NCBI GenBank assembly: GCA_049997875.1
Contig: JBEKRC010000004.1
Location: 8,928 to 72,927, forward strand
Source of the DNA: Minisyncoccia bacterium
GTDB taxonomy: Bacteria > Patescibacteriota > Minisyncoccia > UBA6257 > 2-01-FULL-56-20
Length of the DNA stretch: 64,000 nucleotides
Direction of reading: 5' to 3'
Under the pieces are notes generated by a model, which ran no database searches, had not been told where the DNA came from, and was given only the letters and a program-made list of their open reading frames with translations. Shown here piece after piece: positions 2,981 through 60,167 of this stretch (position 1 is the first letter of the stretch; each line of letters begins with the position of its first letter). Position numbers and translations under genes: made by a program.

Positions 2981-3115
2981 AGATTTCGTTTTCCTTGTGG
3001 ACTCAGCGAGAATCGGACTCGCGTCTCCGCAATGCGAATGCGGCGTATTACCACTATACTATGAGCCCCTGTTTCTCTTTAGAAGATAATAGCACCTAAC
3101 AAAAAGTTTTTCAAT

Positions 3116-4012
3116 TCATTTCAGGAAATTATAGGGAAAGTTGCTGAATCTTCTCTTCGCGAACATCGGTACGGAATGAAAGAACTGGATCCATGCCCTA
3201 AGGTAGTGTTTTTTAACATAGATGTCCTCATTGTGCTCAACGAGCAGCTTGAATATCGCCAAAATTGTTTCTTGATAATACTCGTGGCTATTTGTGCGCA
3301 GAGTCTTTCGCCATAGATTGATTATTCTTTCGTTCTCGGGGGCGTTGATAAACGTTTCTACGGAGAAGAGAGACCTCGTCCCCAATATGCTGAATATTTC
3401 ATGTGCATCCGGATCGCCAATGGTTAGATATTTCCCTTTGTATGCATAAAGGATCCTCGGGAAGGGATCGTATCCGGTCTTGTCCTCTATCAAAAATGGG
3501 AGGCGGACGTTGCGCTCATCCAACTCTCTCTTTAGACGTTTGATCTGTTTCTTTCCATAATAATCGACGACGAAATGCTTCGGGTGCGGGACGATGATCA
3601 TCATTTCCCGTTTGTGAGCGACATACTCTAAAAACTCTTCTTCGGTGAGATTAGCAAAGATCTCTTCGTTAGGCAGAATTCGGTAATGAAGCTTCTCGGT
3701 GTAGCCCCTCAGATCGTCATGATTGCCGAAAGTCAGGAGTTCCCTTCTTGCAACTAGCTTTAAAACGGCGTCGGTCATCCTTTTTTTTATTTTCCACTGG
3801 ATGCCCGGGATGACCAGTACCTTTTCGGTGGAAAAACTTATCGCTTGGCTTACCAATAATGGAATTACGTTATGGTCCGATACGCCTAAAACCGCATATT
3901 CTTTTTCTTTCAGGGTTTTTTCCAAGTATGCCACATATTCGCGAATTGTGGTCGAGCTATCATGGGATCTTTCCGAATGGACGTGAAAAAGGAAAAAGAG
4001 GCGCGGGCTCAC
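3116..4012 (-). CDS. PHP-domain metal-dependent phosphoesterase
   Basis: PHP motifs HVHSERSHDS (HxH..S.D) and VSDHN; 298 aa; AT-rich relative to flanks. Confidence 0.6.
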   Translation of the reverse strand: MSPRLFFLFHVHSERSHDSSTTIREYVAYLEKTLKEKEYAVLGVSDHNVIPLLVSQAISFSTEKVLVIPGIQWKIKKRMTDAVLKLVARRELLTFGNHDDLRGYTEKLHYRILPNEEIFANLTEEEFLEYVAHKREMMIIVPHPKHFVVDYYGKKQIKRLKRELDERNVRLPFLIEDKTGYDPFPRILYAYKGKYLTIGDPDAHEIFSILGTRSLFSVETFINAPENERIINLWRKTLRTNSHEYYQETILAIFKLLVEHNEDIYVKKHYLRAWIQFFHSVPMFAKRRFSNFPYNFLK

Positions 4013-8223: not shown

Positions 8224-8634
8224 TTAGAGCCCTCCCCCAAAATTCCCCAAATTCCCCACCTCATTTAATGACGACTGGACCAGCTGCTGCGTCCACACGA
8301 TCAAAAGCCACATCATGACAACCGTTGAGATTCCCATAAGCACGGAGGCGATGATGCCGATCTGTTTCGCATTTTCATCGTCGGATCTGATATATTTGAC
8401 CCCCGGCCAATAATGTAACGCCAGGAACGCGATCCACGGCATAACAATGCTCAACGCATAAATCCATGCCTGCGTTGCCGCCGTCGTGGAAAGTGGTTTC
8501 TCTTTGAGCGCCCCTCCGCAGTTCGGACAAAAATAAAATTCCGGCTGCACCGGCTGATGGCACGCGGGACAGATAGACAGGCGTGCATCTGGTGCTTGCG
8601 TCACCGGAGAAATTGGCACAGGGATGTTCTCCAT
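8224..8634 (-). CDS. Hypothetical zinc-ribbon membrane protein
   Basis: N-terminal CPACHQP...CPNCGG zinc-ribbon followed by two TM helices. Confidence 0.45.
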   Translation of the reverse strand: MENIPVPISPVTQAPDARLSICPACHQPVQPEFYFCPNCGGALKEKPLSTTAATQAWIYALSIVMPWIAFLALHYWPGVKYIRSDDENAKQIGIIASVLMGISTVVMMWLLIVWTQQLVQSSLNEVGNLGNFGGGL

Positions 8635-8643
8635 ACCTTTATT

Positions 8644-9486
8644 TTAGCATCTGTAGGAATTTATCAACCTTTCCAATATTTCCTTTTTCTCCAAAGATTC
8701 TTTCCAAACACTGTTTGAACGTAATCCATTTATACAAACGCCGTCCGAAAAATTTATGACATCTCTAAATCTCAAAAGATCGGCTCTCCGTGAAATACAG
8801 AGTTCATAAAATCGCGCTTCCATCCGGCTCGCGATGCCGAGGTCGGCAAGCAATTCCTTCACTAACTGCAAAATTTCTAAAGAATGCTGGTATCCGCGGA
8901 CGATCCGTTTTCTTGGAGTAAACGTAACGTTGCCTTCGTCGTCATAAAAGGCTTTCAAAAATGCGGTCTTCTCCTCATAAGAACCGCCACGGATATAACT
9001 TAAAAGTTCTCTGACTTTCTGTCTCAAAAACGCTGCAATTTCAACATGATGATAGCTCACCCTCAACACGCCATCTGGCTTCCTGAGCAATTTATAATCA
9101 GAAACTCCCAGGACTGTATCCATAAGCGAGATGACGTTATTTACCAGTGTTCGGCTCCGATTGTTGTAAATAGATGAAACCCGCGAAATTTCTCCATCAA
9201 ACATAAAATGAGCCACCAAACCAACAAAGGCCGCATTCCATTCCAATGGCACCCGGTAAGAATACGGCTTTACAGATTTACCACGCCTCCCGTCGGTTAA
9301 TGTTTTCTGCTTGGCGCGATTGATGGCGAGGAGTCTTCCTTTAAGATAGTTGGACTTTGCTAAATTTTTTATGTGATAAAATGCGGTTGACTTGGGAATG
9401 TTCGTTTCGGTGATAATTTCACCCAAGGTGAAACCTTGCTGCCGAAGTAATTTTATTCTTTCAATGGTTTCAGCGCTCTGCTTCAT
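8644..9486 (-). CDS. LAGLIDADG-type homing-endonuclease-like protein with N-terminal HTH domain
   Basis: Two LAGLIDADG-like motifs (FVGLVAHFMFDGEIS and FLKAFYDDEGNV) and an N-terminal HTH (GFTLGEIITETNIPKSTAFYHIKNL). The ATG at 9486 is 1 nt from the tRNA-Lys 3' end; lower GC than the backbone. Confidence 0.55.
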   Translation of the reverse strand: MKQSAETIERIKLLRQQGFTLGEIITETNIPKSTAFYHIKNLAKSNYLKGRLLAINRAKQKTLTDGRRGKSVKPYSYRVPLEWNAAFVGLVAHFMFDGEISRVSSIYNNRSRTLVNNVISLMDTVLGVSDYKLLRKPDGVLRVSYHHVEIAAFLRQKVRELLSYIRGGSYEEKTAFLKAFYDDEGNVTFTPRKRIVRGYQHSLEILQLVKELLADLGIASRMEARFYELCISRRADLLRFRDVINFSDGVCINGLRSNSVWKESLEKKEILERLINSYRC

Positions 9487-29752: not shown

Positions 29753-31861
29753 TCACGGTCGGAGCGCGGGCAGAGAAACTACGAACCGGCTGCCCCTTGA
29801 AAGTTCGCTCTCTGCACGGACGGTGCCGCCGTGCGCTTCTATAATCTGCCGACAGATGTCCAATCCAAGGCCCGTGCCGGAAGTGCCGTCCGTTTTGATC
29901 CGATAAAAACGCTCAAAAATATGCGGTAGGTTCTCCGGCGCGACGCCCGAGCCGGTGTCTTCAACAACAATCAGAACATTGCCGCCGTCCGCTTTTCCCA
30001 AAAGCGCTATCCGCCCGCCGCGCGGCGTGTGCTTAAGCGCGTTGCTCACGAAGTTCAGAATCACCTCTTTGAGCTTGTCCCTGTCGCCCGCAACGCGCGC
30101 GGGATCGCTCGCATAGGAAAGAAGTACTCCTTTATTTTCTGCGAGGACAATGCAGTCGTCGTACGCCTCTCCCAAAAGATCTTCCACTATAATTTCCTGT
30201 TTGTGAAGTTTCTCTTTAGAAGAATTTAATCTCACGATGGTAAGAAGGTTATCGGTCGCCCGCGACATCCGTTCAATGGTCTTTGACATCACTCCGAGCG
30301 CCGTCTTGCGATTCCCCTTCCGACTCCCTTCCAAAATCTCCATGTTGCCCTTGAGGATGGCAACTGGGGTCTGCAGTTCATGCGACGCGTCGGTGATAAA
30401 CTTGGCTTGCGCTTCCTGCATGACGCGTACCTCTTCCGTGCGCTCCGCGACGCGCATCTCCATCTCCTCGCCATAACGCCGCGCCTCTTCGTAAAGGCGT
30501 GCGTTTTCTATCGCCATCCCCGCCTGATGGGCAAGGACCCCAAGAAGCTCAATATCCTTTGACCTGAAAATATCGCCGGAGAGCTTCTTCCCCAAGAGCA
30601 TCACGGCCGCCGTCTTACCTCGCACCATAAACGGTACGGCTGCGCCAATTTTGAGCTTCTCCGCACACGCGAGCGTGGTGCGACGCTCGGTCTCCGACAC
30701 ACCTTGCCCACTCTCCCATCTCCCCTCCCATTCCTGGAGAAGAAACTGATCCGTTTTTTTCTCAAAAATATTCACGCAAACATCTTCGTACTCCCGCTCA
30801 AGAAACGACTCATCGACCCCGTGAAAAAACGCACGGACCTTCCGCTTATCGGGGGCATCGTATGAAAATACGCTTCTTTCCGGTTTTATCGTCCGCATAA
30901 GGAACGTGTCCAAGGATTGCAAGAGGACCGCAAGGTCAATGGTTGAATGCAAGAGCCGCCCGAGCTCCCGGACCGCGGCCGTATAATCGTAATCATTGCG
31001 GAAAAAGAAACGATCGGTCACGCGCTCAAAGAAACGCCGGAACCAGACGAAGCCGAACGCGCCCACGATGGCCGCCGCGACGTCGTCGGCCCATCCCTCG
31101 GTTTGCGTGAACATCCTCACTATAAAATCTATCCCGAAGAAAATGCACGCAATGAGGCCGATGGAAAACGCGTACAGGAGCCCGCGCTGGACAACGATGC
31201 GGATATCCATGAACTGATGCCGCACGATGGCATACGCCGTGCTTGCAATAAAGACGATGGAAAAGAGCGGGCCGAGAAGATTGAATTCCACGATACCAAA
31301 AAGAGGAAGAAATGTATTGGAAAGGAACGCGAGGAAAAGGAATGCGCACGCGCCCGCCGCGAAATAGCGCATCTGCACGCGATGGATGCCGCGGAGGCAG
31401 CGGTACTTCCGAACCATCGTAACGATGCTCCATGCGATGTAAGCGCCGACCACGAACCCGAAAAGCGGGAAGAGCGGGCCATGCTGAGGTTCCAGATATC
31501 CCGCAGCATTGAACCGAGCGGCGCGAATGAACGCGCCGAACGGCGTAAGCAATACGAGGCCGAACCACGGCAAGAGCAAAAACAAGAAGCGCTTACGAAG
31601 AGGCCTGCTTTCGGGGAAAACTTCCGCAAGTAAAACAAAACCCAGGACCACGATCTCGCCGCTCCAGAATGCGGCGATCGCGGGCCAAAATTGTCCCGTG
31701 AGAGGAACGAGCATCATGCTCGCGCTCCACCCCACGATGCCGAGCGTGAAAACGAAGAATGAGCGATGGACGATCCCCCGCGGATTTTTCAGGAACACAT
31801 ATATGCCGATGCCGAGATTGAGGCCGTCTATGACGATGTGCGTGACAAGTTCCAAAAGCAT
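29753..31861 (-). CDS. Sensor histidine kinase with 7-8 TM N-terminal domain, GAF-like region, HisKA and HATPase
   Basis: H-box ASHELQTPVAILKGNMEIL, N/G1/G2 boxes (NALKHT, DTGSGV, GTGLGL); 702 aa. Confidence 0.85.
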   Translation of the reverse strand: MLLELVTHIVIDGLNLGIGIYVFLKNPRGIVHRSFFVFTLGIVGWSASMMLVPLTGQFWPAIAAFWSGEIVVLGFVLLAEVFPESRPLRKRFLFLLLPWFGLVLLTPFGAFIRAARFNAAGYLEPQHGPLFPLFGFVVGAYIAWSIVTMVRKYRCLRGIHRVQMRYFAAGACAFLFLAFLSNTFLPLFGIVEFNLLGPLFSIVFIASTAYAIVRHQFMDIRIVVQRGLLYAFSIGLIACIFFGIDFIVRMFTQTEGWADDVAAAIVGAFGFVWFRRFFERVTDRFFFRNDYDYTAAVRELGRLLHSTIDLAVLLQSLDTFLMRTIKPERSVFSYDAPDKRKVRAFFHGVDESFLEREYEDVCVNIFEKKTDQFLLQEWEGRWESGQGVSETERRTTLACAEKLKIGAAVPFMVRGKTAAVMLLGKKLSGDIFRSKDIELLGVLAHQAGMAIENARLYEEARRYGEEMEMRVAERTEEVRVMQEAQAKFITDASHELQTPVAILKGNMEILEGSRKGNRKTALGVMSKTIERMSRATDNLLTIVRLNSSKEKLHKQEIIVEDLLGEAYDDCIVLAENKGVLLSYASDPARVAGDRDKLKEVILNFVSNALKHTPRGGRIALLGKADGGNVLIVVEDTGSGVAPENLPHIFERFYRIKTDGTSGTGLGLDICRQIIEAHGGTVRAESELSRGSRFVVSLPALRP

Positions 31862-38861: not shown

Positions 38862-41282
38862 TTATACTTCCTTCTTTCTCTCCCCCACCGAATGACCGCC
38901 GAAGCGGCTGCGGAGCGCGGAGAGGATTCGACCCGTATAGCTCGGCGCTTTTCGGGAACGCATGCGGAATTTGAACGCATCTTCTATCGCCGGCAGTTTC
39001 ACGCGCCACTTGCGGCCGGTCTTTAGGGTCCATTCACCCTCGCCGGTCGCGGCGACCGTGCCAGATACCGCATGTAGCTCCTTGCCATAAATGCGGAACG
39101 CGTCTTCCATCCAGCCAACGAGGCGCGATTCAATGACGCTGCCACGGTTGTATACGCGCGCAATCTTCTCAAGATCAAACTTGAATGGCGATTTTTTCAT
39201 GAGCGCGAAACCTTCCGCCAAGGACTGCATCATGCCGTATTCAATGCCGTTGTGGACCATCTTTACGAAATGGCCTGCGCCCGCATCGCCGAAATACGCG
39301 TAGCCCAAGGGCACGGAGAGGTCGGCGAAGAGCGGCTCCAGATATTCAAATGTTTTGCGGTCGCCGCCGATCATGAGCGAGCCGCCGTAGCGCGCGCCGT
39401 GCGGGCCGCCCGAGAAGCCCACATCCACAAACCGAATGCCGCGCTTGCCGAGAAGCTTCGCCCGCCGCACGCTGTCCTCAAAGAACGAATTGCCGGCGTC
39501 TATCACGATGTCGCCTTTTTGGAGGTGCGTCACAATGCCATTCCTGCTCCGTCCCGCGCCGAAGAGAAATTCGTCCACTCCTTTTCCGGCGGTGATCATG
39601 AGCCAGATCACGCGCGGCGAATGTCTTCGCGGCACCGCGAGCTCCGCCGCGAGTTCTGCGAGAGAATACGCCGCCTCAAAACCTTCTCCCTCCAGCTGTT
39701 GCAAGGACTCCGGCGAGCGATTGGCTGCGATGACGCGCCATCCTTTATCGCGCAGCTGCCATGCCACGTTCGCACCCATCTTCCCGAGCCCGAAAATGCC
39801 TATTTCCTTCGGAAGCGCCGAGGTCCCATTTCTTTCCGCCGCGTCATCAAATGCCGCCGCTTCGGCGACAATCTTACGGCCGCCCGGCGCGTAGTGCCGC
39901 AGCGGGACCAAGTTCTTTTTCCACGCAATGATGAACGGGTCTATGAACTTCCACATCGCGGCGATCTCCTCGCTTGAGACAAAGAGCGTCTGGTCGCCCG
40001 CGATGCAGTCCAAAATCAGTTTTTCGTATTCCTCGGTATATTGAGCATGAAGAACGGTTTTCCGAAAATCAAAATTAAATGTCCGTTCTTCAAACTCAAA
40101 CTTGTGTCCCGGCTTTTTGGAATGAAACTTGATGGTGATCCCCTCGGTCGGTTCAAGGTGAATGAAAATGCGGTTATGATGATGTTCGTTCCCTATGCAA
40201 AGGCAGGGCTGTTCGTGGCGCAGCACAATCTCTATCTCTTTGATCGGCTCGCCGAGGCGCTTCCCGCTTTCCATGACGAGCGGCATTCCCTCCCACCGCG
40301 CGCCGGTGAGGAATCCTTTGATACGAAAGTACGTTTCGGTTCTTGAACGGGGAGAAACGCCGGGTACGGAACGGTAGCCGTCGTATTGCGCGCGGAACGA
40401 GTTCTTTGCGGCTTCGCGGGGCGTCTGAATGACGAGGCGCCTCAAAAGCTCCGCGCGGAGCGGACGGATCGCTTGGGCGTCGTACCGCGCGGGCCGTTCC
40501 ATGGCAACGAGCGCGAGCATCTGCAGAAGATGGTTCTGTCCCACATCTTGTAGAGCGCCCACGTGGTCGTAGAATGGGCCGCGTCCCTCGACGCCGATTT
40601 TCTCAAACAGGCGGATGTGCACGCGCGCTATCGTACGGCTCGTCCATTCGTTTTCAAAAAGATCGTTCGCGAACCGGAACATCAGAATATTCTGCAACAT
40701 CTCCTTCGCCAGATAATGGTCTATCCGATACACTTGTTCCTCCCGAAAGAGCTTTGTCAGTTGGGCATCAAGCGCCTTCGCACTCTTCTCATTGTTGCCG
40801 AACGGCTTTTCCACAATTACGCGCGTCCATCCCTCGTTCGGACCGCAGCCGTCGGTCAGATGGCTGCGGTGCAGGTGGGCAAGGATGAGCGAATAAAACT
40901 GCGGCGGGACCGAAAGATAAAAAAGTTTGTTCGCGCACATGCCCCACGCATCGTCAATATTTTTCAAAAGATCGTTGAGCGCCAGGTAGTCCTCCGGAGA
41001 ATCAAACGCCAACCGATGGTACGCGGCAAGGTCAAGGAACGATCGTACGGTTGCGGCGGGCGCGTGCGATGTCCTCTCTTTAAGAATGGTGCGGAGGTGC
41101 GTACGGAGATCGTCGTCGCCCCACGCGCGCCTTGAAACGCCTACGAGTTTGAACTTTGGCGGCAGCTGCTTTTTTGCATGCAAATTAAAAAGCGCCGGCA
41201 CGATCTTTTTCGCCATAAGGTCGCCCGTGGCGCCCAAGACCACGAGAATGGTAGGAATGGTTTGTTTCCGCTCATCTATCAT
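38862..41282 (-). CDS. zwf: Fusion protein: glucose-6-phosphate dehydrogenase (N-terminal ~480 aa) + 6-phosphogluconate dehydrogenase-like NAD(P)-binding enzyme (C-terminal ~300 aa)
   Basis: N-terminal GATGDLMAKKIVPALF and Zwf active-site segment RIDHYLAKE. The C-terminal half has the 6PGDH Rossmann GIFGLGKMGANVAWQL plus ...GDAGAGHFVKMVHNGIEYGMMQ; 806 aa. Confidence 0.8.
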   Translation of the reverse strand: MIDERKQTIPTILVVLGATGDLMAKKIVPALFNLHAKKQLPPKFKLVGVSRRAWGDDDLRTHLRTILKERTSHAPAATVRSFLDLAAYHRLAFDSPEDYLALNDLLKNIDDAWGMCANKLFYLSVPPQFYSLILAHLHRSHLTDGCGPNEGWTRVIVEKPFGNNEKSAKALDAQLTKLFREEQVYRIDHYLAKEMLQNILMFRFANDLFENEWTSRTIARVHIRLFEKIGVEGRGPFYDHVGALQDVGQNHLLQMLALVAMERPARYDAQAIRPLRAELLRRLVIQTPREAAKNSFRAQYDGYRSVPGVSPRSRTETYFRIKGFLTGARWEGMPLVMESGKRLGEPIKEIEIVLRHEQPCLCIGNEHHHNRIFIHLEPTEGITIKFHSKKPGHKFEFEERTFNFDFRKTVLHAQYTEEYEKLILDCIAGDQTLFVSSEEIAAMWKFIDPFIIAWKKNLVPLRHYAPGGRKIVAEAAAFDDAAERNGTSALPKEIGIFGLGKMGANVAWQLRDKGWRVIAANRSPESLQQLEGEGFEAAYSLAELAAELAVPRRHSPRVIWLMITAGKGVDEFLFGAGRSRNGIVTHLQKGDIVIDAGNSFFEDSVRRAKLLGKRGIRFVDVGFSGGPHGARYGGSLMIGGDRKTFEYLEPLFADLSVPLGYAYFGDAGAGHFVKMVHNGIEYGMMQSLAEGFALMKKSPFKFDLEKIARVYNRGSVIESRLVGWMEDAFRIYGKELHAVSGTVAATGEGEWTLKTGRKWRVKLPAIEDAFKFRMRSRKAPSYTGRILSALRSRFGGHSVGERKKEV

Positions 41283-41325: not shown

Positions 41326-41952
41326 ATGCGAAAAGCACTCACCAAATCATTCTACGACAGGCCGACGCTTGCGGTCGCGAAGACGCTCCTCGGCAAGTAC
41401 CTCGTGCGACGCTATCGCGGGAAAACGATCGCGCTCATGGTGACCGAGGTGGAAGCATACGACGGACCGCGCGATATGGCCTCGCACGCGAGCCGCGGCC
41501 GCACGCCGCGCAACCACCTGATGTTCGGCGAGGCCGGCCGTTTCTATGTGTATTTCACTTACGGGATGCACTGGCTTGCGAATATCGTGACGGGGCCGGG
41601 CGGCTATCCCGCAGCCGTCCTCATCCGCGCCGGTGTCTCTAAAGATCCTCGGACAGGCGCGCTGCGTGAGGTGCACGGCCCCGCACGCGTCACAAAATTT
41701 TTACACATCGGCACCGCTGAGAACGGCAAACACGCTTCAAAAAGAAACGGCCTCTGGTTTGAGGACCGAAGCGTAATAATTCCCCGCAAAGCAATCGTCG
41801 CCCGAAAGCGCGTCGGCGTGGATTACGCCGGTCCCGTCTGGGCAAACAAAAAATATAACTTCGCGTTACGGGACTCCACGCTTCGCCGCATGCTTATTTT
41901 TTCTGCTCGTCCTTCTTCCCGTGCTTCCCGTCCTCGCAGTCGCACTCGCTAA
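41326..41952 (+). CDS. mpg: DNA-3-methyladenine glycosylase (Mpg/AAG family)
   Basis: FYDRPTLAVAKTLLGKYLV...VEAYDGPRDMASHASRGRTPRN..MFGEAGRFYVYFTYGMHW matches the family. The R/S-rich C-terminal tail overlaps a convergent small ORF and may not be translated. Confidence 0.8.
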   Translation: MRKALTKSFYDRPTLAVAKTLLGKYLVRRYRGKTIALMVTEVEAYDGPRDMASHASRGRTPRNHLMFGEAGRFYVYFTYGMHWLANIVTGPGGYPAAVLIRAGVSKDPRTGALREVHGPARVTKFLHIGTAENGKHASKRNGLWFEDRSVIIPRKAIVARKRVGVDYAGPVWANKKYNFALRDSTLRRMLIFSARPSSRASRPRSRTR

Positions 41953-42046
41953 GCAGCTCGCCATGCTTTGAACACGTGGGCGTTTGGCACGTTCCCGGCT
42001 TTTCCGAAACTCCGGCGCACTCACCGGTGCAAATGTAGTGTTTCAT
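41894..42046 (-). CDS. Small Cys-rich peptide (50 aa, 6 Cys, acidic/lysine tail)
   Basis: Own translation: MKHYICTGECAGVSEKPGTCQTPTCSKHGELLSECDCEDGKHGKKDEQKK*. It lies 15 nt downstream of the RsbW-like kinase gene on the same strand and is absent from the ORF track. Confidence 0.4.
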   Translation of the reverse strand: MKHYICTGECAGVSEKPGTCQTPTCSKHGELLSECDCEDGKHGKKDEQKK

Positions 42047-42061
42047 AAAAATTAACTTATG

Positions 42062-42538
42062 TTAAGATTCTCGCCTCTTTATCAAGGTTACCTTGCACCC
42101 CTTTCCGCCTTCTCCCTCTGAAACATTCACCTCGCTGCAATATTTCCTCATGAGAAAAAGGCCTCGACCGCTTCCCTTAAGCAGGTTCTCTTGAGCAATA
42201 GGGTCGGGAACCTCACTAATATTGAATCCTTTCCCTTTGTCCTCAACGGCGACTTCGGCTTCTTTTCTCCCAAGATTCCAGGTGACCGTTATCTTCTTTC
42301 CCCTTTTTTCCTCTGCGGCACTGCCCTCGTTGCCATGCTGTACCGCATTTATAAACGCTTCGTGCCCGGCATCCACGAATTCCTGCGTTTCTTTCTCGCT
42401 CCAGTCTAAACCGCGCTGCAACTCCCCCCCGACAGCAGTCCACAGCTCGCTATCTGCCCCCGCAACGCTTTCGAAAACTTGATGTCCCGTTCTGGGAAAA
42501 CTCTCCGCCAGATTCATTTGAGGATCACCTTTCACCAT
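42062..42538 (-). CDS. RsbW/SpoIIAB-like anti-sigma-factor serine kinase (HATPase_c_2)
   Basis: GHEAFINAVQHG (N-box) and GRGLFLMRKYCSEVNV (G2) align with the RsbW motifs SEACTNAVQHA / GLGLYLMETLMDEVRV; 158 aa. Confidence 0.65.
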   Translation of the reverse strand: MVKGDPQMNLAESFPRTGHQVFESVAGADSELWTAVGGELQRGLDWSEKETQEFVDAGHEAFINAVQHGNEGSAAEEKRGKKITVTWNLGRKEAEVAVEDKGKGFNISEVPDPIAQENLLKGSGRGLFLMRKYCSEVNVSEGEGGKGCKVTLIKRRES

Positions 42539-42545
42539 TTGGATC

Positions 42546-43013
42546 CTATTTGAAGTTCACCGGCACGCGAAGTTCCTCGGCGTTCTGCGGCAGGCCAGAT
42601 GGGTTGTCTTTGGCGAGCACAACGGTTCCCGTCGCATATTTGGGCGTGGTAAATGGAATGCTCACCGCGAAGGGTACCGTGCCGGTCGTCGTCCAATCGC
42701 TTTGCGCCTGTGCGGGACCCCCGCCAAGCTCCGTACCGTCACCATCTAAAATCCGTACTGGAAACGATGCCTCAAAGAACCATCCGCCGCCGGTCACGGT
42801 TCCCGCGACCGCGAGAGGCGAAGAGATAAGCACGTTCGGGAGTGGCGACGTTACAACGACGCGCCCATCGGGCGAGGTGGCCGGTGCGGAGTTCTTGCCC
42901 GTGGGCACCGTGGGTCCCTGGACCGGCTTCACAAATACAAGCACACTGAGAAGAACCACGATGATAACCGCGAAAGCGACCACGATTATTTTCAATTTCT
43001 TGAGCGTCGGCAT
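42546..43013 (-). CDS. Membrane-anchored Gmad2-like immunoglobulin-fold protein
   Basis: N-terminal TM anchor and a Gly/Thr-rich beta-sandwich-like region (ASFPVRILDGDGTELGG...) typical of Gmad2 domains. Confidence 0.5.
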   Translation of the reverse strand: MPTLKKLKIIVVAFAVIIVVLLSVLVFVKPVQGPTVPTGKNSAPATSPDGRVVVTSPLPNVLISSPLAVAGTVTGGGWFFEASFPVRILDGDGTELGGGPAQAQSDWTTTGTVPFAVSIPFTTPKYATGTVVLAKDNPSGLPQNAEELRVPVNFK

Positions 43014-43022
43014 GTTATTTCC

Positions 43023-43289
43023 CTACGGGAGCGCCCCTTCGCGCCGCAACATCATTATCTTCTTTTTGCGGCCCCATGCAAATCCGCCCGGATCGCCGTC
43101 CGAGCGCACTACGCGATGGCACGGCACCTTGGGATTCCGGTTCTTATTCAAGATATTCCCGACCGCACGGTATGCCCGCGGGCTCCCCGCCCGCCGCGCG
43201 ACCTCCTTATAGGTGAGCGTCTGCCCGCGCGGAATCTTCGCAACAACCGCGTATACTTTTTCAGAAAAAGATTTTTGGGAGGTCTTCAT
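43023..43289 (-). CDS. MGMT-family DNA-binding domain protein (6-O-methylguanine-DNA methyltransferase C-terminal domain only)
   Basis: IPRGQTLTYKEVA...PCHRVV active-site motif; 88 aa, lacking the N-terminal Ogt domain. Confidence 0.75.
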   Translation of the reverse strand: MKTSQKSFSEKVYAVVAKIPRGQTLTYKEVARRAGSPRAYRAVGNILNKNRNPKVPCHRVVRSDGDPGGFAWGRKKKIMMLRREGALP

Positions 43290-43293
43290 AAAA

Positions 43294-43596
43294 TTAAGAT
43301 TCGTCTAGGATGATCCTCTTCTTGAACCGTCCCCGCTCTTCCGCTTTTTTCTCTCCCATCTTCACTATTCTTTTCCAATTAAACTTTTTGTAATCCGCAA
43401 TGGCACCAATTACTTCGAGAAGATCGGCGAATTCCTCGGGACTTTCGTTATGCTCAAATTCTTTGATCTCTTCATACAGCTTCTCCTTCAACTTCTTCCA
43501 ATATTCCGCCCGAGTTGCCACATGATAAACCGGCTTCCCGCCCCTTTTGCGGATGTGTTCGGGGATCTTGTCGCGTACGAGCTTGTTATATTTCAT
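43294..43596 (-). CDS. MazG-like nucleotide pyrophosphohydrolase (small, all-alpha)
   Basis: KLVRDKIPE ... EExxE ... EEFADLLEV pattern of small MazG/PRA-PH-like NTP-PPases; AT-rich. Confidence 0.5.
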   Translation of the reverse strand: MKYNKLVRDKIPEHIRKRGGKPVYHVATRAEYWKKLKEKLYEEIKEFEHNESPEEFADLLEVIGAIADYKKFNWKRIVKMGEKKAEERGRFKKRIILDES

Positions 43597-43720: not shown

Positions 43721-45388
43721 ATGGAGCGGGAAACGCGGGCGTGTGAGGACTGCAAAAACCAGTTCGCAATTGAGCCGGAGGATTTTGATTTTTATAAGAA
43801 AATGGGGGCTCAACCTCCAAGCATCTGTCCGAACTGTCGCTTTAAATGGCGAGCGCTCTATCGCAACGAACGTACTTTGTATAACTCCAGGTGCGGTCTA
43901 TGCGGGAAAACCATCATCTCCGCGTATAATCCCCGATCACCATACACGGCGTACTGCACGAAGTGCTTTGATTCAGACAATTGGGACCGATTCTCGTTCA
44001 ACGTCGATTTCGATTTCAAAAAGCCATTCTTTGAGCAACTCGGAGAACTTTTCAGAAAAACACCAAAGCAAGCCCTCTACATCACCCACAGCCCCACGAA
44101 CGTAAACAGCGAGTACATCAACTACGCCGGGCCATATGAAAAAAACTGCTATCTCGTCTCCAACTCCGGCGAAGGAGAAGAGGTGCTCTACTCCCGTGGT
44201 ATGCGGCATTGTAAATATGCTTCGGACCTTTACTACGCAACGTTTTTGGAAGATTGCTACGAATGCATCAATGGCCATCATTCCTCGCGCGTGTATCACG
44301 GGCAAAACGTAAGCGGCAGCATTGACTGCGCCTATGTCGCGAATTGCAGCGGGTGCACCCACTGCTTCGGGTGCGTGAATTTACGCAATCAAAAATATCA
44401 CTTTTTCAACGAACAACTTTCCAGGGAAGAATACGAGAGGAAGGTGCGTGAGATCTTGGGGAGTTACTCAAAAATGCAAGAGGCCGAGCAACGCTTTGAG
44501 CAATTTGCACTACAATTTCCGCAACGCGAGAATCAAAATCTGAAATCGGTGAATTGCATCGGTGACTATCTCACTGAATCGAAAAATACGAAGTATTCGT
44601 TCGAAGACACGAACTGTGAAGATTGCAAGCATGCCTTTTTCAGCAAGAATATGAAGGACTCTTACGACACCACTGGCTACGGATACAGTAGCGAGCTATT
44701 GCTCTCCGTCGCGGCGGCGGGATACTCCAACCGCGTTATTGGATCGGCGCTCATCTCCGCCAGCCACGATATTGATTACTCACTCGCGCTCAATACCTGC
44801 AATAACTGCATCGGCTGCGACGGCCTCAAAAACGCGGAATTTTGTTTGTTGAACAAGAAATATCCAGAAGTGGAATATAAGCGCATCAGAGAACACATTA
44901 TTAAAGAATTGAAGGGAAAGAACAGTTATGGTCTCCCGTTGCCTCCGGAGATCGGTCTCTTCGCCTACAACGAAACGATTGGGCAAGACAATTTGCCAAT
45001 GACCAAGGAAGAAGCGCTCGCACAGGGACTTGGATGGCAGGACGACGTGCAAACGACAAAGGGAAAGGAAACTATGCCGCTCGAAAAGATTCCGGACCAT
45101 ATCCGTGACGTTTCCGAATCTATTATCAAAGAAATTCTTGCATGTGCGGAGTGCGGCAGAAATTACCGCATCATTCCGCAGGAGCTACTCCTCTATAAAC
45201 GGCTTATCATCCCAATACCGCGAAAATGTTTCAACTGCCGTCACATGGCGAGGATCAAGAAGCGGGGACCGTTTACCCTCTACGATCGTCGGTGTGGTCG
45301 GTGCGGAAAAGATATCAAAACAAACTTTGCGCCGGAGAGGCCCGAAATCGTCTATTGTGAGCAGTGTTATCAGGCAGAGGTGATATAA
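43721..45388 (+). CDS. Large cysteine-rich protein (~40 Cys) with a duplicated ~80-aa double-zinc-ribbon module at both termini and a Cys/His-rich core
   Basis: The N-terminal module (CEDC..FAIEPEDFDFYKKM..CPNCR..LYNSRCGLCGK..YCTKCF) is repeated at the C-terminus (CAEC..YRIIPQELLLYKRL..CFNCR..LYDRRCGRCGK..YCEQCY). The core has repeated C-x2-C-x-G-C-x2-L-x-N motifs (NCSGCTHCFGCVNLRN / CNNCIGCDGLKN); AT-rich islet; it is the only plus-strand gene in a minus-strand block. Confidence 0.55.
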   Translation: MERETRACEDCKNQFAIEPEDFDFYKKMGAQPPSICPNCRFKWRALYRNERTLYNSRCGLCGKTIISAYNPRSPYTAYCTKCFDSDNWDRFSFNVDFDFKKPFFEQLGELFRKTPKQALYITHSPTNVNSEYINYAGPYEKNCYLVSNSGEGEEVLYSRGMRHCKYASDLYYATFLEDCYECINGHHSSRVYHGQNVSGSIDCAYVANCSGCTHCFGCVNLRNQKYHFFNEQLSREEYERKVREILGSYSKMQEAEQRFEQFALQFPQRENQNLKSVNCIGDYLTESKNTKYSFEDTNCEDCKHAFFSKNMKDSYDTTGYGYSSELLLSVAAAGYSNRVIGSALISASHDIDYSLALNTCNNCIGCDGLKNAEFCLLNKKYPEVEYKRIREHIIKELKGKNSYGLPLPPEIGLFAYNETIGQDNLPMTKEEALAQGLGWQDDVQTTKGKETMPLEKIPDHIRDVSESIIKEILACAECGRNYRIIPQELLLYKRLIIPIPRKCFNCRHMARIKKRGPFTLYDRRCGRCGKDIKTNFAPERPEIVYCEQCYQAEVI

Positions 45389-58972: not shown

Positions 58973-59722
58973 TCATATCGTTGGAATACTGAACGAGAAA
59001 GCGGATCCCTTGCCCTCGCCTTCGGACGATACCGAAATTTTCCCGTTATGGGCTTCCACGAACATCTTCGCGACGTGGAGGCCAAGGCCGCTGCCGCGGA
59101 TCTCGCCCTTCACGCGCTCGTCGCGGACGAACTCCTCAAACAAAAACGGCTGGACTCCCTCCGAGATGCCGATCCCGGAATCCGCGACCGAAAGCACGAC
59201 ATTTCCGTCCTTCTCTTCCACGTTCACCTTTACAAAACCTTTTTCGGTGTACTTCACGGCGTTGTCAACCAAATTTTTTATCACGTGCTGCAGCTTTTGC
59301 TCATCGCCATAGATCATGATCTCTTTTTGCGGCGCCTGGAATTCCAAATTCAGGCCTTTGCTTGACGCAAGATGGCCCAGTTCCTCCGCCGCCTGTCGCG
59401 CGAGTTTCACGAAATCAATGTTCGCCATTTGATATTCAATCCTCCCCTCTTCAATCTTGCGAAGATCTATCACATTGTCCACAAGGTTCACGAGGTCTTC
59501 GGCTGCAAACTCAATTTTTGCCATGACTTCTCTCGCGCGGTTGTCTATTTCGCCGTAATAGCCGTCACGCAAGAGCGCCGCGTAGCCGCGGATAATGCCC
59601 AATGGCGCCTTCATCTGATGCGACGTGAGCGCCAAAAGATGCGTCTTGAAATGGTTCAGGTCATTGAGCTTTCTGTTGTCCTCCTCAAGCTTCTTGCGAA
59701 GCTCGTCAGCATCGGCGCTCAT
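58973..59722 (-). CDS. Cytoplasmic histidine kinase (HisKA + HATPase)
   Basis: H-box LTSHQMKAPLGIIRGYAALL, N-box NLVDNAVKYT, G-boxes DSGIGI / GSGLGL; ATG at 59722. Confidence 0.8.
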   Translation of the reverse strand: MSADADELRKKLEEDNRKLNDLNHFKTHLLALTSHQMKAPLGIIRGYAALLRDGYYGEIDNRAREVMAKIEFAAEDLVNLVDNVIDLRKIEEGRIEYQMANIDFVKLARQAAEELGHLASSKGLNLEFQAPQKEIMIYGDEQKLQHVIKNLVDNAVKYTEKGFVKVNVEEKDGNVVLSVADSGIGISEGVQPFLFEEFVRDERVKGEIRGSGLGLHVAKMFVEAHNGKISVSSEGEGKGSAFSFSIPTI

Positions 59723-59768
59723 GCTTATATGATACCAAGCCGTTTTAACTCTCGCTCTGCAACGAGGG

Positions 59769-60167
59769 TCACTTTTTTGCGAGCATTTCCCGCACCCTTG
59801 CCACAATCACATTCAGGTCCGCGGTCTTATCAATGTAATCCTCCATGCCCAATCCCTTCGCGAGCCTATCGCGGTCGCCCTGGGTCGCGGGCCATGGATC
59901 TTTCAGGTTGCTCAGAAACGCGATTTTTATGTCTTTTGTCTCCGGATTCTGTTTGATCGCAAGCGCCGCATCGGTACCGGTCTCCCCGCCGGGCATGCGG
60001 ACGTCCATAAGAACAAGGTCGGGGTGCAATTTCGCCGCGGCATCAACTCCCTCTTTGGCATTGTAGGCCACCACGGGATCAAAGCCGGATGCCCCAAGCT
60101 TCACGGACATAATTTCCAGAAGTTCGTGCTCGTCGTCAACAATGAGGACAAGCGGTTTTTCCCTCAT
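59769..60167 (-). CDS. Single-domain response regulator (CheY-like receiver)
   Basis: LIVDDE, phospho-acceptor Asp in LVLMDVRMP, conserved Lys; 132 aa. Confidence 0.85.
   Translation of the reverse strand: MREKPLVLIVDDEHELLEIMSVKLGASGFDPVVAYNAKEGVDAAAKLHPDLVLMDVRMPGGETGTDAALAIKQNPETKDIKIAFLSNLKDPWPATQGDRDRLAKGLGMEDYIDKTADLNVIVARVREMLAKK

Follow-up and report, generated by a model that had tools for sequence, protein, structure and literature searches.

A predicted RsbW/SpoIIAB-class kinase without local partners lies in one operon with a cysteine-rich mini-protein widespread in Patescibacteria

Anti-sigma kinases of the SpoIIAB and RsbW type (PDB 1TIL, 1TH8, 1L0O and 6M36) are built from a single Bergerat domain of about 150 amino acids, and are normally encoded next to a STAS antagonist, a sigma factor and a PP2C phosphatase. 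Control of an RsbW-like domain without a STAS protein has been described for LvrC of Leptospira, a Rec-Bergerat anti-sigma protein (PMC13269768). In the ssDNA-activated CapK/CapS system, an RsbW-like kinase, CapK, is paired with a STAS-like repressor, which it phosphorylates (PMC13373217).

Here we analyze a 64,000-nucleotide stretch of a Minisyncoccia bacterium genome (the window) that encodes a protein of this type alongside a small, cysteine-rich ORF. The protein resembles SpoIIAB and RsbW in its single Bergerat domain and motifs, but is only 18-25% identical to them, and genes for a STAS antagonist, sigma factor or PP2C phosphatase are missing beside it. Its best sequence match in the PDB is LvrC (9QIH, E = 1.4e-5 across the G1-G2 region), which possesses a receiver domain that the window's protein, at 158 aa and with no Response_reg match, does not have; LvrC-style REC fusions are found in many of its metagenomic relatives. 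The molecule name given in the 9QIH entry is "SenB". CapK, which is anti-sigma-like but has a non-sigma output tied to DNA damage, provides a further comparison, as the kinase gene here is positioned among DNA-repair genes (those for Ogt and MPG); unlike CapK, however, it has neither an adjacent CapS/STAS-like gene nor a downstream defence operon. Membership of a defence system was considered and set aside, there being no match in PADLOC, the 2.0 release of which CapK post-dates.

The kinase gene belongs to a tightly packed operon that runs toward a convergent mpg gene (Table 1). It begins 7 nt downstream of a gene for a membrane-anchored Gmad2 protein, which is itself preceded by a gene for a stand-alone methyltransferase domain carrying the PCHRV active site. 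The first gene of the operon, which has counterparts in both sister loci discussed below (L001 and L045), gave no significant match in a Pfam scan, and by eye alone looks like MazG/PRA-PH. The short spacer that separates the end of the kinase gene from the cysteine-rich ORF measures 15 nt in L045 and 10 nt in L001, and no Shine-Dalgarno sequence is evident in the window's copy. When the operon was scanned for promoters and terminators, the counts were no higher than expected from shuffled sequence.

Table 1. Features of the operon and of the convergent mpg gene, in window coordinates.
Feature	Position	Strand	Length	Remarks
mpg (3-methyladenine DNA glycosylase)	41326..41952	+		convergent to peptide gene
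Peptide/mpg overlap	41894..41952		59 nt	
Peptide ORF	41894..42046	-	50 aa	MKHYICTGECAGVSEKPGTCQTPTCSKHGELLSECDCEDGKHGKKDEQKK
Spacer	42047..42061	-	15 nt	AT-rich; kinase stop to peptide start
Kinase (HATPase_c_2)	42062..42538	-	158 aa	
Gmad2 Ig-like domain protein, membrane-anchored	42546..43013	-		Pfam Gmad2, 4.6e-12
O6-methylguanine-DNA methyltransferase C-terminal domain, stand-alone (Ogt)	43023..43289	-	88 aa	Pfam DNA_binding_1, 2.1e-29
First gene of operon	43294..43596	-	100 aa	

Profile searches and structure prediction indicate that the kinase gene encodes a bona fide single-domain, Bergerat-fold Ser kinase of the anti-sigma-like RsbW/SpoIIAB class. Residues 40-154 match Pfam HATPase_c_2 (PF13581) with E = 5.6e-16 and 59.1 bits (cutoff 27.4), and the AF2 model, in which the core fold is confidently predicted (pLDDT 78), finds SpoIIAB and RsbW structures as its best Foldseek matches (1TIL, 1TH8, 1L0O and 6M37; E = 1e-9 to 1e-7; TM 0.63-0.71 by query and 0.79-0.85 by target, with 0.71 and 0.80-0.83 for SpoIIAB). 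The ATP-binding motifs are intact, comprising an N-box (E60, N64), a G1 box (D100-x-G-x-G) and a G2 box (SGRG); across 30 relatives (alignment A6), E60, N64, D100, G102, G104, G124, R125 and G126 are invariant. An earlier note on this DNA had placed the protein in the same class on the strength of the strings HEAFINAVQHG (N-box, residues 59-69) and GRGLFLMRKY (G-box, residues 124-133), both of which are present, and the profile and fold matches bear that placement out. Orthology to SpoIIAB or RsbW themselves is not borne out, as the protein scores well below the NCBIfam equivalog cutoffs (37.2 vs 135 for TIGR01925, 31.5 vs 145 for NF003144 and 26 vs 155 for TIGR01924).

The same note had found no STAS or sigma gene within 10 kb, and Pfam scans of local ORFs and six-frame searches now agree with it. 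The search for partners covered the 64-kb window and ±10 kb (20 kb) around the kinase orthologue in each of L001 and L045. Pfam tables for these two regions contain no STAS, Sigma70 or SpoIIE domain, and a six-frame HMM search for STAS, ECF sigma and PP2C across the window and both orthologous regions returned nothing better than E = 0.35. The STAS seeds in that search were the STAS proteins paired with the closest relatives of the kinase; the three HMMs were built from few seeds, such that very divergent homologues could escape them, and the Pfam scans of ORFs give the same answer. The kinase is thus locally orphan, within 64 kb here and 20 kb for each orthologue. This condition is common among its HATPase_c_2 relatives, as an adjacent STAS gene, judged by the STAS HMM, is missing in 31 of 47 metagenomic relatives, many of which are REC fusions.

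The kinase is confined to three closely related genomes, namely the window's own and two sisters, L001 and L045, for which complete chromosomes exist (OY970382.1 and OY970175.1). Outgroup loci at 64-87% identity (L005, L003/L010 and L008) keep the Gmad2-peptide-mpg arrangement and have no kinase. In L005, a sister locus, the Gmad2 and peptide genes are directly adjacent; in L003/L010, they are separated by an unrelated ORF of 187 aa that runs on the opposite strand and matches nothing in Pfam, and tblastn found no kinase remnant there. A word-index search for kinase homologues gave two relatives, and a profile of the three sequences reached further ones. Beyond the three genomes, the next relatives are only 36-40% identical and non-CPR, the few with a named source being Poribacteria and Planctomycetes, and the two near relatives examined (P0167 and P0173) both have a STAS gene directly downstream. 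The kinase gene also has the lowest GC3 of the locus (0.53, vs 0.67-0.71 for gmad2, ogt, mpg and the peptide gene). Taken together, and drawing entirely on its distribution, the identity gap and this weak GC3 signal, we conclude that the kinase was probably acquired horizontally, without its usual STAS neighbor. In this lineage, the peptide gene would ancestrally have followed the Gmad2 gene directly, converging on mpg, and the kinase gene probably arrived between the Gmad2 and peptide genes.

An imported kinase without its partner might be a functionless, decaying remnant of a kinase-STAS pair from which the STAS gene has been lost. The narrow distribution and low GC3 fit such a history, as does the finding that no other gene of the locus evolves as fast: the kinase is 56-79% identical among the three genomes where its neighbors are 80-94% identical, and has the highest dN/dS. 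That dN/dS, however, is 0.38-0.45, clearly below 1, a value that points to purifying but relaxed selection; moreover, the ORF is intact in all three genomes, the ATP-binding residues are all conserved, and structure prediction is confident about the core fold. We consider decay improbable, and the intact motifs, fold and dN/dS indicate instead a kinase that is still functional.

The cysteine-rich ORF downstream matches its description in the earlier note: it lies on the same strand, 15 nt beyond the kinase, overlaps the convergent mpg gene by 59 nt, and encodes six cysteines, at positions 6/10, 20/25 and 35/37 (C-x3-C, C-x4-C and C-x-C), and a KKDEQKK tail. Whether an ORF of this kind is a gene is a fair question. 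With 90 ORFs of at least 30 aa in 7 kb, 50 codons by themselves are not significant, and the ORF was left out when genes were called on both orthologous chromosomes (JGI does list it, as a hypothetical protein), so that it could be taken for a chance reading frame opposite the true mpg C-terminus. Conservation is what sets it apart from chance. It is conserved in the orthologous loci of all three kinase-bearing genomes, a check that the earlier note had proposed. Within its frame, 27 of 39 variable sites fall at codon position 3 and dN/dS is 0.04-0.14; of the nine variable sites in the overlap, six fall at position 2 of the mpg codons, two at position 1 and one at position 3. The Pfam Pur_DNA_glyco domain (7.4e-48, residues 8-184) ends at about nt 41877, ahead of the overlap, and the last 24 residues of mpg (41878-41949), which lie past the domain and antisense to the peptide gene, contain an indel in L003. 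Homologues of the peptide are present, in addition, at loci with no mpg at all. These comparisons indicate that the 50-aa ORF is a genuine coding gene and the overlapped mpg tail unconstrained; a chance origin, with next to no probability left to it, is on such comparative evidence already refuted. The convergent 59-nt overlap led gene callers to lose the better-conserved peptide gene while keeping the unconstrained tail of its neighbor.

The peptide belongs to a large, unnamed family that is widespread in Patescibacteria. At E<=1e-3 the family comprises 499 cluster representatives (50% identity), 205 of them at E<=1e-10, and its members are nearly all stand-alone proteins of 47-90 aa. A scan for genomic loci with a 5-sequence alignment as query located about 35-36, spread over many Patescibacteria lineages (Saccharibacteria, Paceibacterota, and Kaiser-, Roizman-, Nomura-, Gottesman-, Harrison-, Taylor-, Yanofsky- and Lloydbacteria). 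The peptide itself has no match in Pfam (E<=0.1), NCBIfam or PADLOC, nor in a PDB sequence search at E<7, and when 27 family members were compared with Pfam at E<=1, no Pfam family was common to more than two of them. Zinc ribbons, HMBD, rubredoxin, metallothionein and ZAS, the small metal-binding families considered, thus gave no significant match.

Eight residues are invariant across the family (alignment A4): H3, C6, C10, C20, C25, C35, C37 and H42. Eight invariant Cys and His residues suggest two zinc sites, and the most likely partition is into a Cys4 site (C6/C10/C20/C25) and a Cys2His2 site (H3/C35/C37/H42), the metal probably being Zn. An AF2 model from the 5-sequence alignment is poor (pLDDT 58). 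The peptide recalls the small zinc-ribbon or heavy-metal-binding mini-domains, such as HMBD (PF19335), a resemblance that we presume to be no more than a lead. It has in common with these its small size, paired Cys ligands and a short Y-x-C...P-G-x-C...C pattern, but its spacings are C-x3-C and C-x4-C, where the usual zinc knuckle has C-x2-C, and it carries an extra C-x-C...H site. Several other identities were rejected. Against a RiPP precursor stand the invariance of the N-terminus and of the entire core and the lack of neighboring maturase genes; Cys makes up only 12% of the residues, in a fixed ligand pattern that includes His, which does not suit a metallothionein; and the spacing differs from that of the ZAS anti-sigma motif (HxxxCxxC).

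How, then, are the two genes related? The earlier note had suggested that the peptide could be a partner or substrate of the kinase that binds metal or senses redox state and so feeds into partner switching; in this clade it would then stand in for the STAS protein. Gene order, strand and a 10-15 nt spacer are indeed kept in all three kinase-bearing genomes, where flanking genes are 80-94% identical, so that the linkage counts as one evolutionary observation. The nearest kinase relatives have their STAS gene at the peptide's downstream position, no STAS was found locally, and the peptide offers Ser14, Ser26 and Ser33 as potential phosphorylation sites; the tight linkage and shared position make a functional link within the clade possible. 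Set against these points, the peptide is older than the kinase at this locus, and hundreds of lineages keep it without a kinase. Family-wide alignment reveals no invariant Ser, and the peptide shows no clade-specific change between kinase-bearing genomes and their kinase-less sisters. Nor does it resemble a STAS protein: the STAS fold spans about 110 aa and has a conserved phospho-Ser, whereas the peptide has 50 aa and no Pfam STAS match. With a family that is Patescibacteria-wide and outgroups that carry no kinase, the proposal found no specific support, and we regard it as quite unlikely. A more particular version, in which the imported kinase lost its STAS protein, became coupled to the resident two-metal peptide next to it, and has its kinase or anti-sigma activity gated by the peptide thiolates according to their redox, metal-bound or alkylated state, appears to us slightly more doubtful still. 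If true, it would amount to STAS-free, thiol-sensing partner switching in an ultra-small genome, and would give organisms whose regulatory repertoires are minimal a new type of input to this mechanism.

The arrangement is better accounted for by chance. Only two of 36 family loci, L006 and L007 (the same as L001 and L045), have the kinase beside the peptide, and because the family is almost always found without a kinase, the two genes look like chance operon neighbors. We therefore favor, as a probable explanation, two functionally independent genes brought together in one operon: one for a putative metal-binding mini-protein, the other for an imported Ser kinase. The 50-aa ORF would give rise to a cytoplasmic member of the unnamed Patescibacteria family, whose eight invariant Cys and His residues, to judge from their pattern of conservation, most likely coordinate two metal ions, probably Zn. 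The kinase would have come in without a STAS protein, and most likely it either targets a protein encoded elsewhere, be it a sigma factor or a STAS protein, or works as a STAS-less anti-sigma-like regulator. If the genes are independent, the kinase joins the other RsbW-like proteins that are orphan locally, and the analysis has, usefully, brought to light in passing a large family of Patescibacteria small proteins with eight invariant Cys/His ligands.

The contexts of that family offer a hint of its role. Its commonest conserved neighbor is Gmad2, present at 10 of 36 loci, with one distant example confirmed; other neighbors include glutaredoxin, a Y-family polymerase (Pol IV), Ogt and MPG, and members are found fused to DJ-1/PfpI, Glyoxalase/VOC, AAA_33 and DUF7282 domains. 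A literature search on CPR cysteine-rich small proteins brought up nothing relevant. Fusions and neighbors together hint at a function in thiol, electrophile or alkylation stress. From the DJ-1 and VOC fusions, and from the glutaredoxin, Ogt, MPG and Pol IV neighbors, one may go further and picture a Zn-thiolate protein, shared across Patescibacteria, with a role in electrophile or alkylation stress, a reading that we offer tentatively and at low confidence. The family, which has neither a name nor a model and is sometimes missed by gene callers, merits a Pfam entry.

The kinase and the peptide lie on one strand, 15 nt apart, as the last two genes of a closely packed minus-strand operon in which a 100-aa protein, Ogt, Gmad2, the kinase and the peptide follow one another with spacers of 4, 9, 7 and 15 nt. 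The six cysteines of the peptide (residues 6/10, 20/25 and 35/37), its KKDEQKK C-terminus and a 59-nt overlap with the convergent mpg gene were likewise confirmed as the earlier note had described them.

Coordinates of the kinase-peptide operon and of other features in the window
Feature	Position (nt)	Strand	Length
100-aa protein, first operon gene	43294-43596	minus	100 aa
Ogt C-terminal domain	43023-43289	minus	88 aa
Gmad2 Ig-like membrane protein	42546-43013	minus	
Kinase	42062-42538	minus	158 aa
Peptide	41894-42046	minus	50 aa
mpg, convergent to peptide gene	41326-41952	plus	
G6PD-type ORF	38862-41282	minus	806 aa
Cys-rich protein	43721-45388	plus	555 aa
HTH + LAGLIDADG_3 protein	8644-9486	minus	280 aa
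Double-zinc-ribbon membrane protein	8224-8634		
Histidine kinase	29753-31861	minus	
Histidine kinase	58973-59806	minus	

Because ORFs of the peptide's length are common by chance (90 of >=30 aa in 7 kb), conservation was the test needed for this one. Close homologues in other assemblies share 70-100% identity, four syntenic loci, aligned at the nucleotide level without gaps, have 27 of 39 variable sites at the third codon position of the peptide frame, and the peptide dN/dS (0.04-0.14) is among the lowest in the locus, with only the first operon gene equally low (0.03-0.10). The ORF is thus a genuine gene, called by JGI and omitted by gene callers in both orthologous chromosomes. Within the overlap, nine variable sites fall at mpg codon positions 2 (six), 1 (two) and 3 (one). 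The Pfam MPG domain stops at residue 184 of 208 (~nt 41877), ahead of the overlap, and the mpg tail carries an indel in the kinase-less outgroup locus L003. Taken with the codon-position pattern and the low peptide dN/dS, these features indicate that the peptide gene is the constrained partner of the overlap; the final 24 mpg residues are unselected read-through into its antisense strand.

Placement of the kinase in the RsbW/SpoIIAB class was borne out by a Pfam HATPase_c_2 match (E 5.6e-16, 59.1 bits, cutoff 27.4; HATPase_c also matches, more weakly) and by an AF2 model (pLDDT 78) that superposes best on SpoIIAB, RsbW, LvrC and UsfX; its ATP-binding residues are all invariant among 30 relatives. 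Matches to the NCBIfam SpoIIAB and RsbW equivalogs score well under their cutoffs, indicating a family member that is an orthologue of neither. The reported lack of a STAS or sigma gene nearby also stands: Pfam scans of local ORFs and Pfam tables of the two sister loci L001 and L045 (±10 kb) contain no STAS, sigma or PP2C domain, and no HMM hit in six-frame translations of the window or of either sister locus was better than E = 0.35. Other window ORFs, judged by eye, are housekeeping genes. Such local orphanhood is not unusual, since a STAS HMM detected an adjoining STAS gene in just 16 of 47 metagenomic kinase relatives. Many of the remainder are ~300-aa REC-HATPase_c_2 fusions, resembling the best PDB sequence match of the window kinase, Leptospira LvrC, a Rec-controlled putative anti-sigma factor (PMC13269768). 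As CapK/CapS illustrates, RsbW-like kinases can phosphorylate non-sigma regulators upon DNA damage (PMC13373217).

The earlier note proposed the peptide as a partner or substrate of the kinase. Both near kinase relatives examined (P0167 and P0173) carry a 114-aa STAS gene at the exact position of the peptide here, an arrangement that would fit the peptide having taken over the STAS role. Nothing specific supports this reading, however. Among 36 peptide loci, the kinase adjoins the peptide in only two sister genomes, which keep the gene order (spacers 10-15 nt) and form a tight clade with the window (flanking genes 80-94% identical); outgroups whose flanking genes are 64-87% identical are without the kinase, yet retain Ogt-Gmad2-peptide-mpg. 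Moreover, the peptide sequence shows no change that tracks the presence of the kinase, and no Ser is invariant across family alignments of 17 and 27 members. The partner or substrate proposal is unsupported by these data.

Inspection of the Gmad2-peptide gap revealed contents that vary by lineage. The gap is empty in L005 (2394-2417, 22 nt), holds an unrelated 187-aa opposite-strand ORF with no Pfam match in L003 (1104-1768; equivalent to L010 3280-4001), contains an untranslated stretch plus a glutaredoxin gene, the latter upstream of the peptide, in L029 and L032 (about 3000-4000), and is filled by the kinase in the window clade (window 42047-42545). This variation indicates that the kinase is one lineage-specific occupant of the gap. 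Most likely, it is a laterally acquired RsbW-like protein that would have been inserted beside a resident peptide gene, and that would either have a partner encoded elsewhere or act without STAS; the peptide, in turn, is most likely an ancient Patescibacteria mini-protein, predicted to bind metal. Close kinase relatives number just two (P0008, 79% identity; P0166, 56-59%), both in complete chromosomes of ~0.89 Mb from one sample. Further matches fall to 36-40% identity, the few named by source being Poribacteria and Planctomycetes, and several lie on 5-6 Mb contigs. Kinase GC3 (0.53) is the locus minimum; gmad2, ogt, mpg and the peptide gene lie at 0.67-0.71. The kinase dN/dS of 0.38-0.45, which marks the least constrained gene in the locus, indicates purifying selection.

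What is new here, besides one more protein of a known kinase class, is the unnamed small-protein family of the peptide (P0009-P0158), nearly confined to Patescibacteria and a candidate new domain family. Searched with a profile, 1.84 billion cluster representatives yielded 499 members at E<=1e-3, of which 205 reached E<=1e-10 (~500 clusters, built at 50% identity), nearly all stand-alone proteins of 47-90 aa. A genome scan located 35 loci; apart from two, the contigs belong to lineages of Patescibacteria (Saccharibacteria, Paceibacterota, Kaiser-, Roizman-, Nomura-, Gottesman-, Harrison-, Taylor-, Yanofsky- and Lloydbacteria). Two family loci, L024 (184,785-bp contig) and L031, sit in MAGs labelled Gammaproteobacteria, which could be a binning error or mean that the family truly extends beyond Patescibacteria. 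Across 17 diverse members, H3, C6, C10, C20, C25, C35, C37 and H42 never vary, and C6, C10, C20 and C25 are invariant in 27/27; we infer two putative metal sites, one Cys4 and one Cys2His2. Pfam, NCBIfam, PADLOC and PDB sequence searches gave no match for the peptide, and among 27 family members scanned no Pfam family recurred in more than two. The AF2 model of the peptide is unreliable (pLDDT 58). In rare cases the domain is fused to DJ-1/PfpI, Glyoxalase/VOC, AAA_33 kinases, DUF7282 or membrane segments. Recurrent neighbours across the 36 loci are Gmad2 (10/36), convergent mpg (6), PEBP (5-6), Ogt (5), Y-family polymerase (4) and glutaredoxin, and one locus is flanked by glyoxalase-type genes. 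Together, these fusions and neighbours weakly suggest a role in thiol, electrophile or alkylation stress.

Several other genes deserve mention. Ogt is a stand-alone DNA_binding_1 domain with its PCHRV site and without the N-terminal domain; its counterpart in L001 (9283-9513) aligns over 77 aa only, has no gene call and may be truncated. The 806-aa ORF, whose 89-90% identical orthologues carry G6PD_N, G6PD_C, NAD_binding_2 and 6PGD domains, appears to fuse glucose-6-phosphate dehydrogenase to a 6-phosphogluconate-dehydrogenase-like module. Treble-clef zinc-finger matches near both ends (zf_Tbcl, sub-threshold, residues 5-42; zf_Tbcl_2, C-terminal) are the only domains of the 555-aa protein, at whose site L001 has two ~595-aa other-strand proteins without Pfam match and L045 has nothing. 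No response regulator was recognised among window ORFs; of the two classical histidine kinases, orthology assigns one to the HisKA_7TM type, and the other is a soluble HisKA-HATPase_c protein of only 277 aa. Finally, the LAGLIDADG_3 protein is free-standing and homing-endonuclease-like, and adjoins the double-zinc-ribbon membrane protein.
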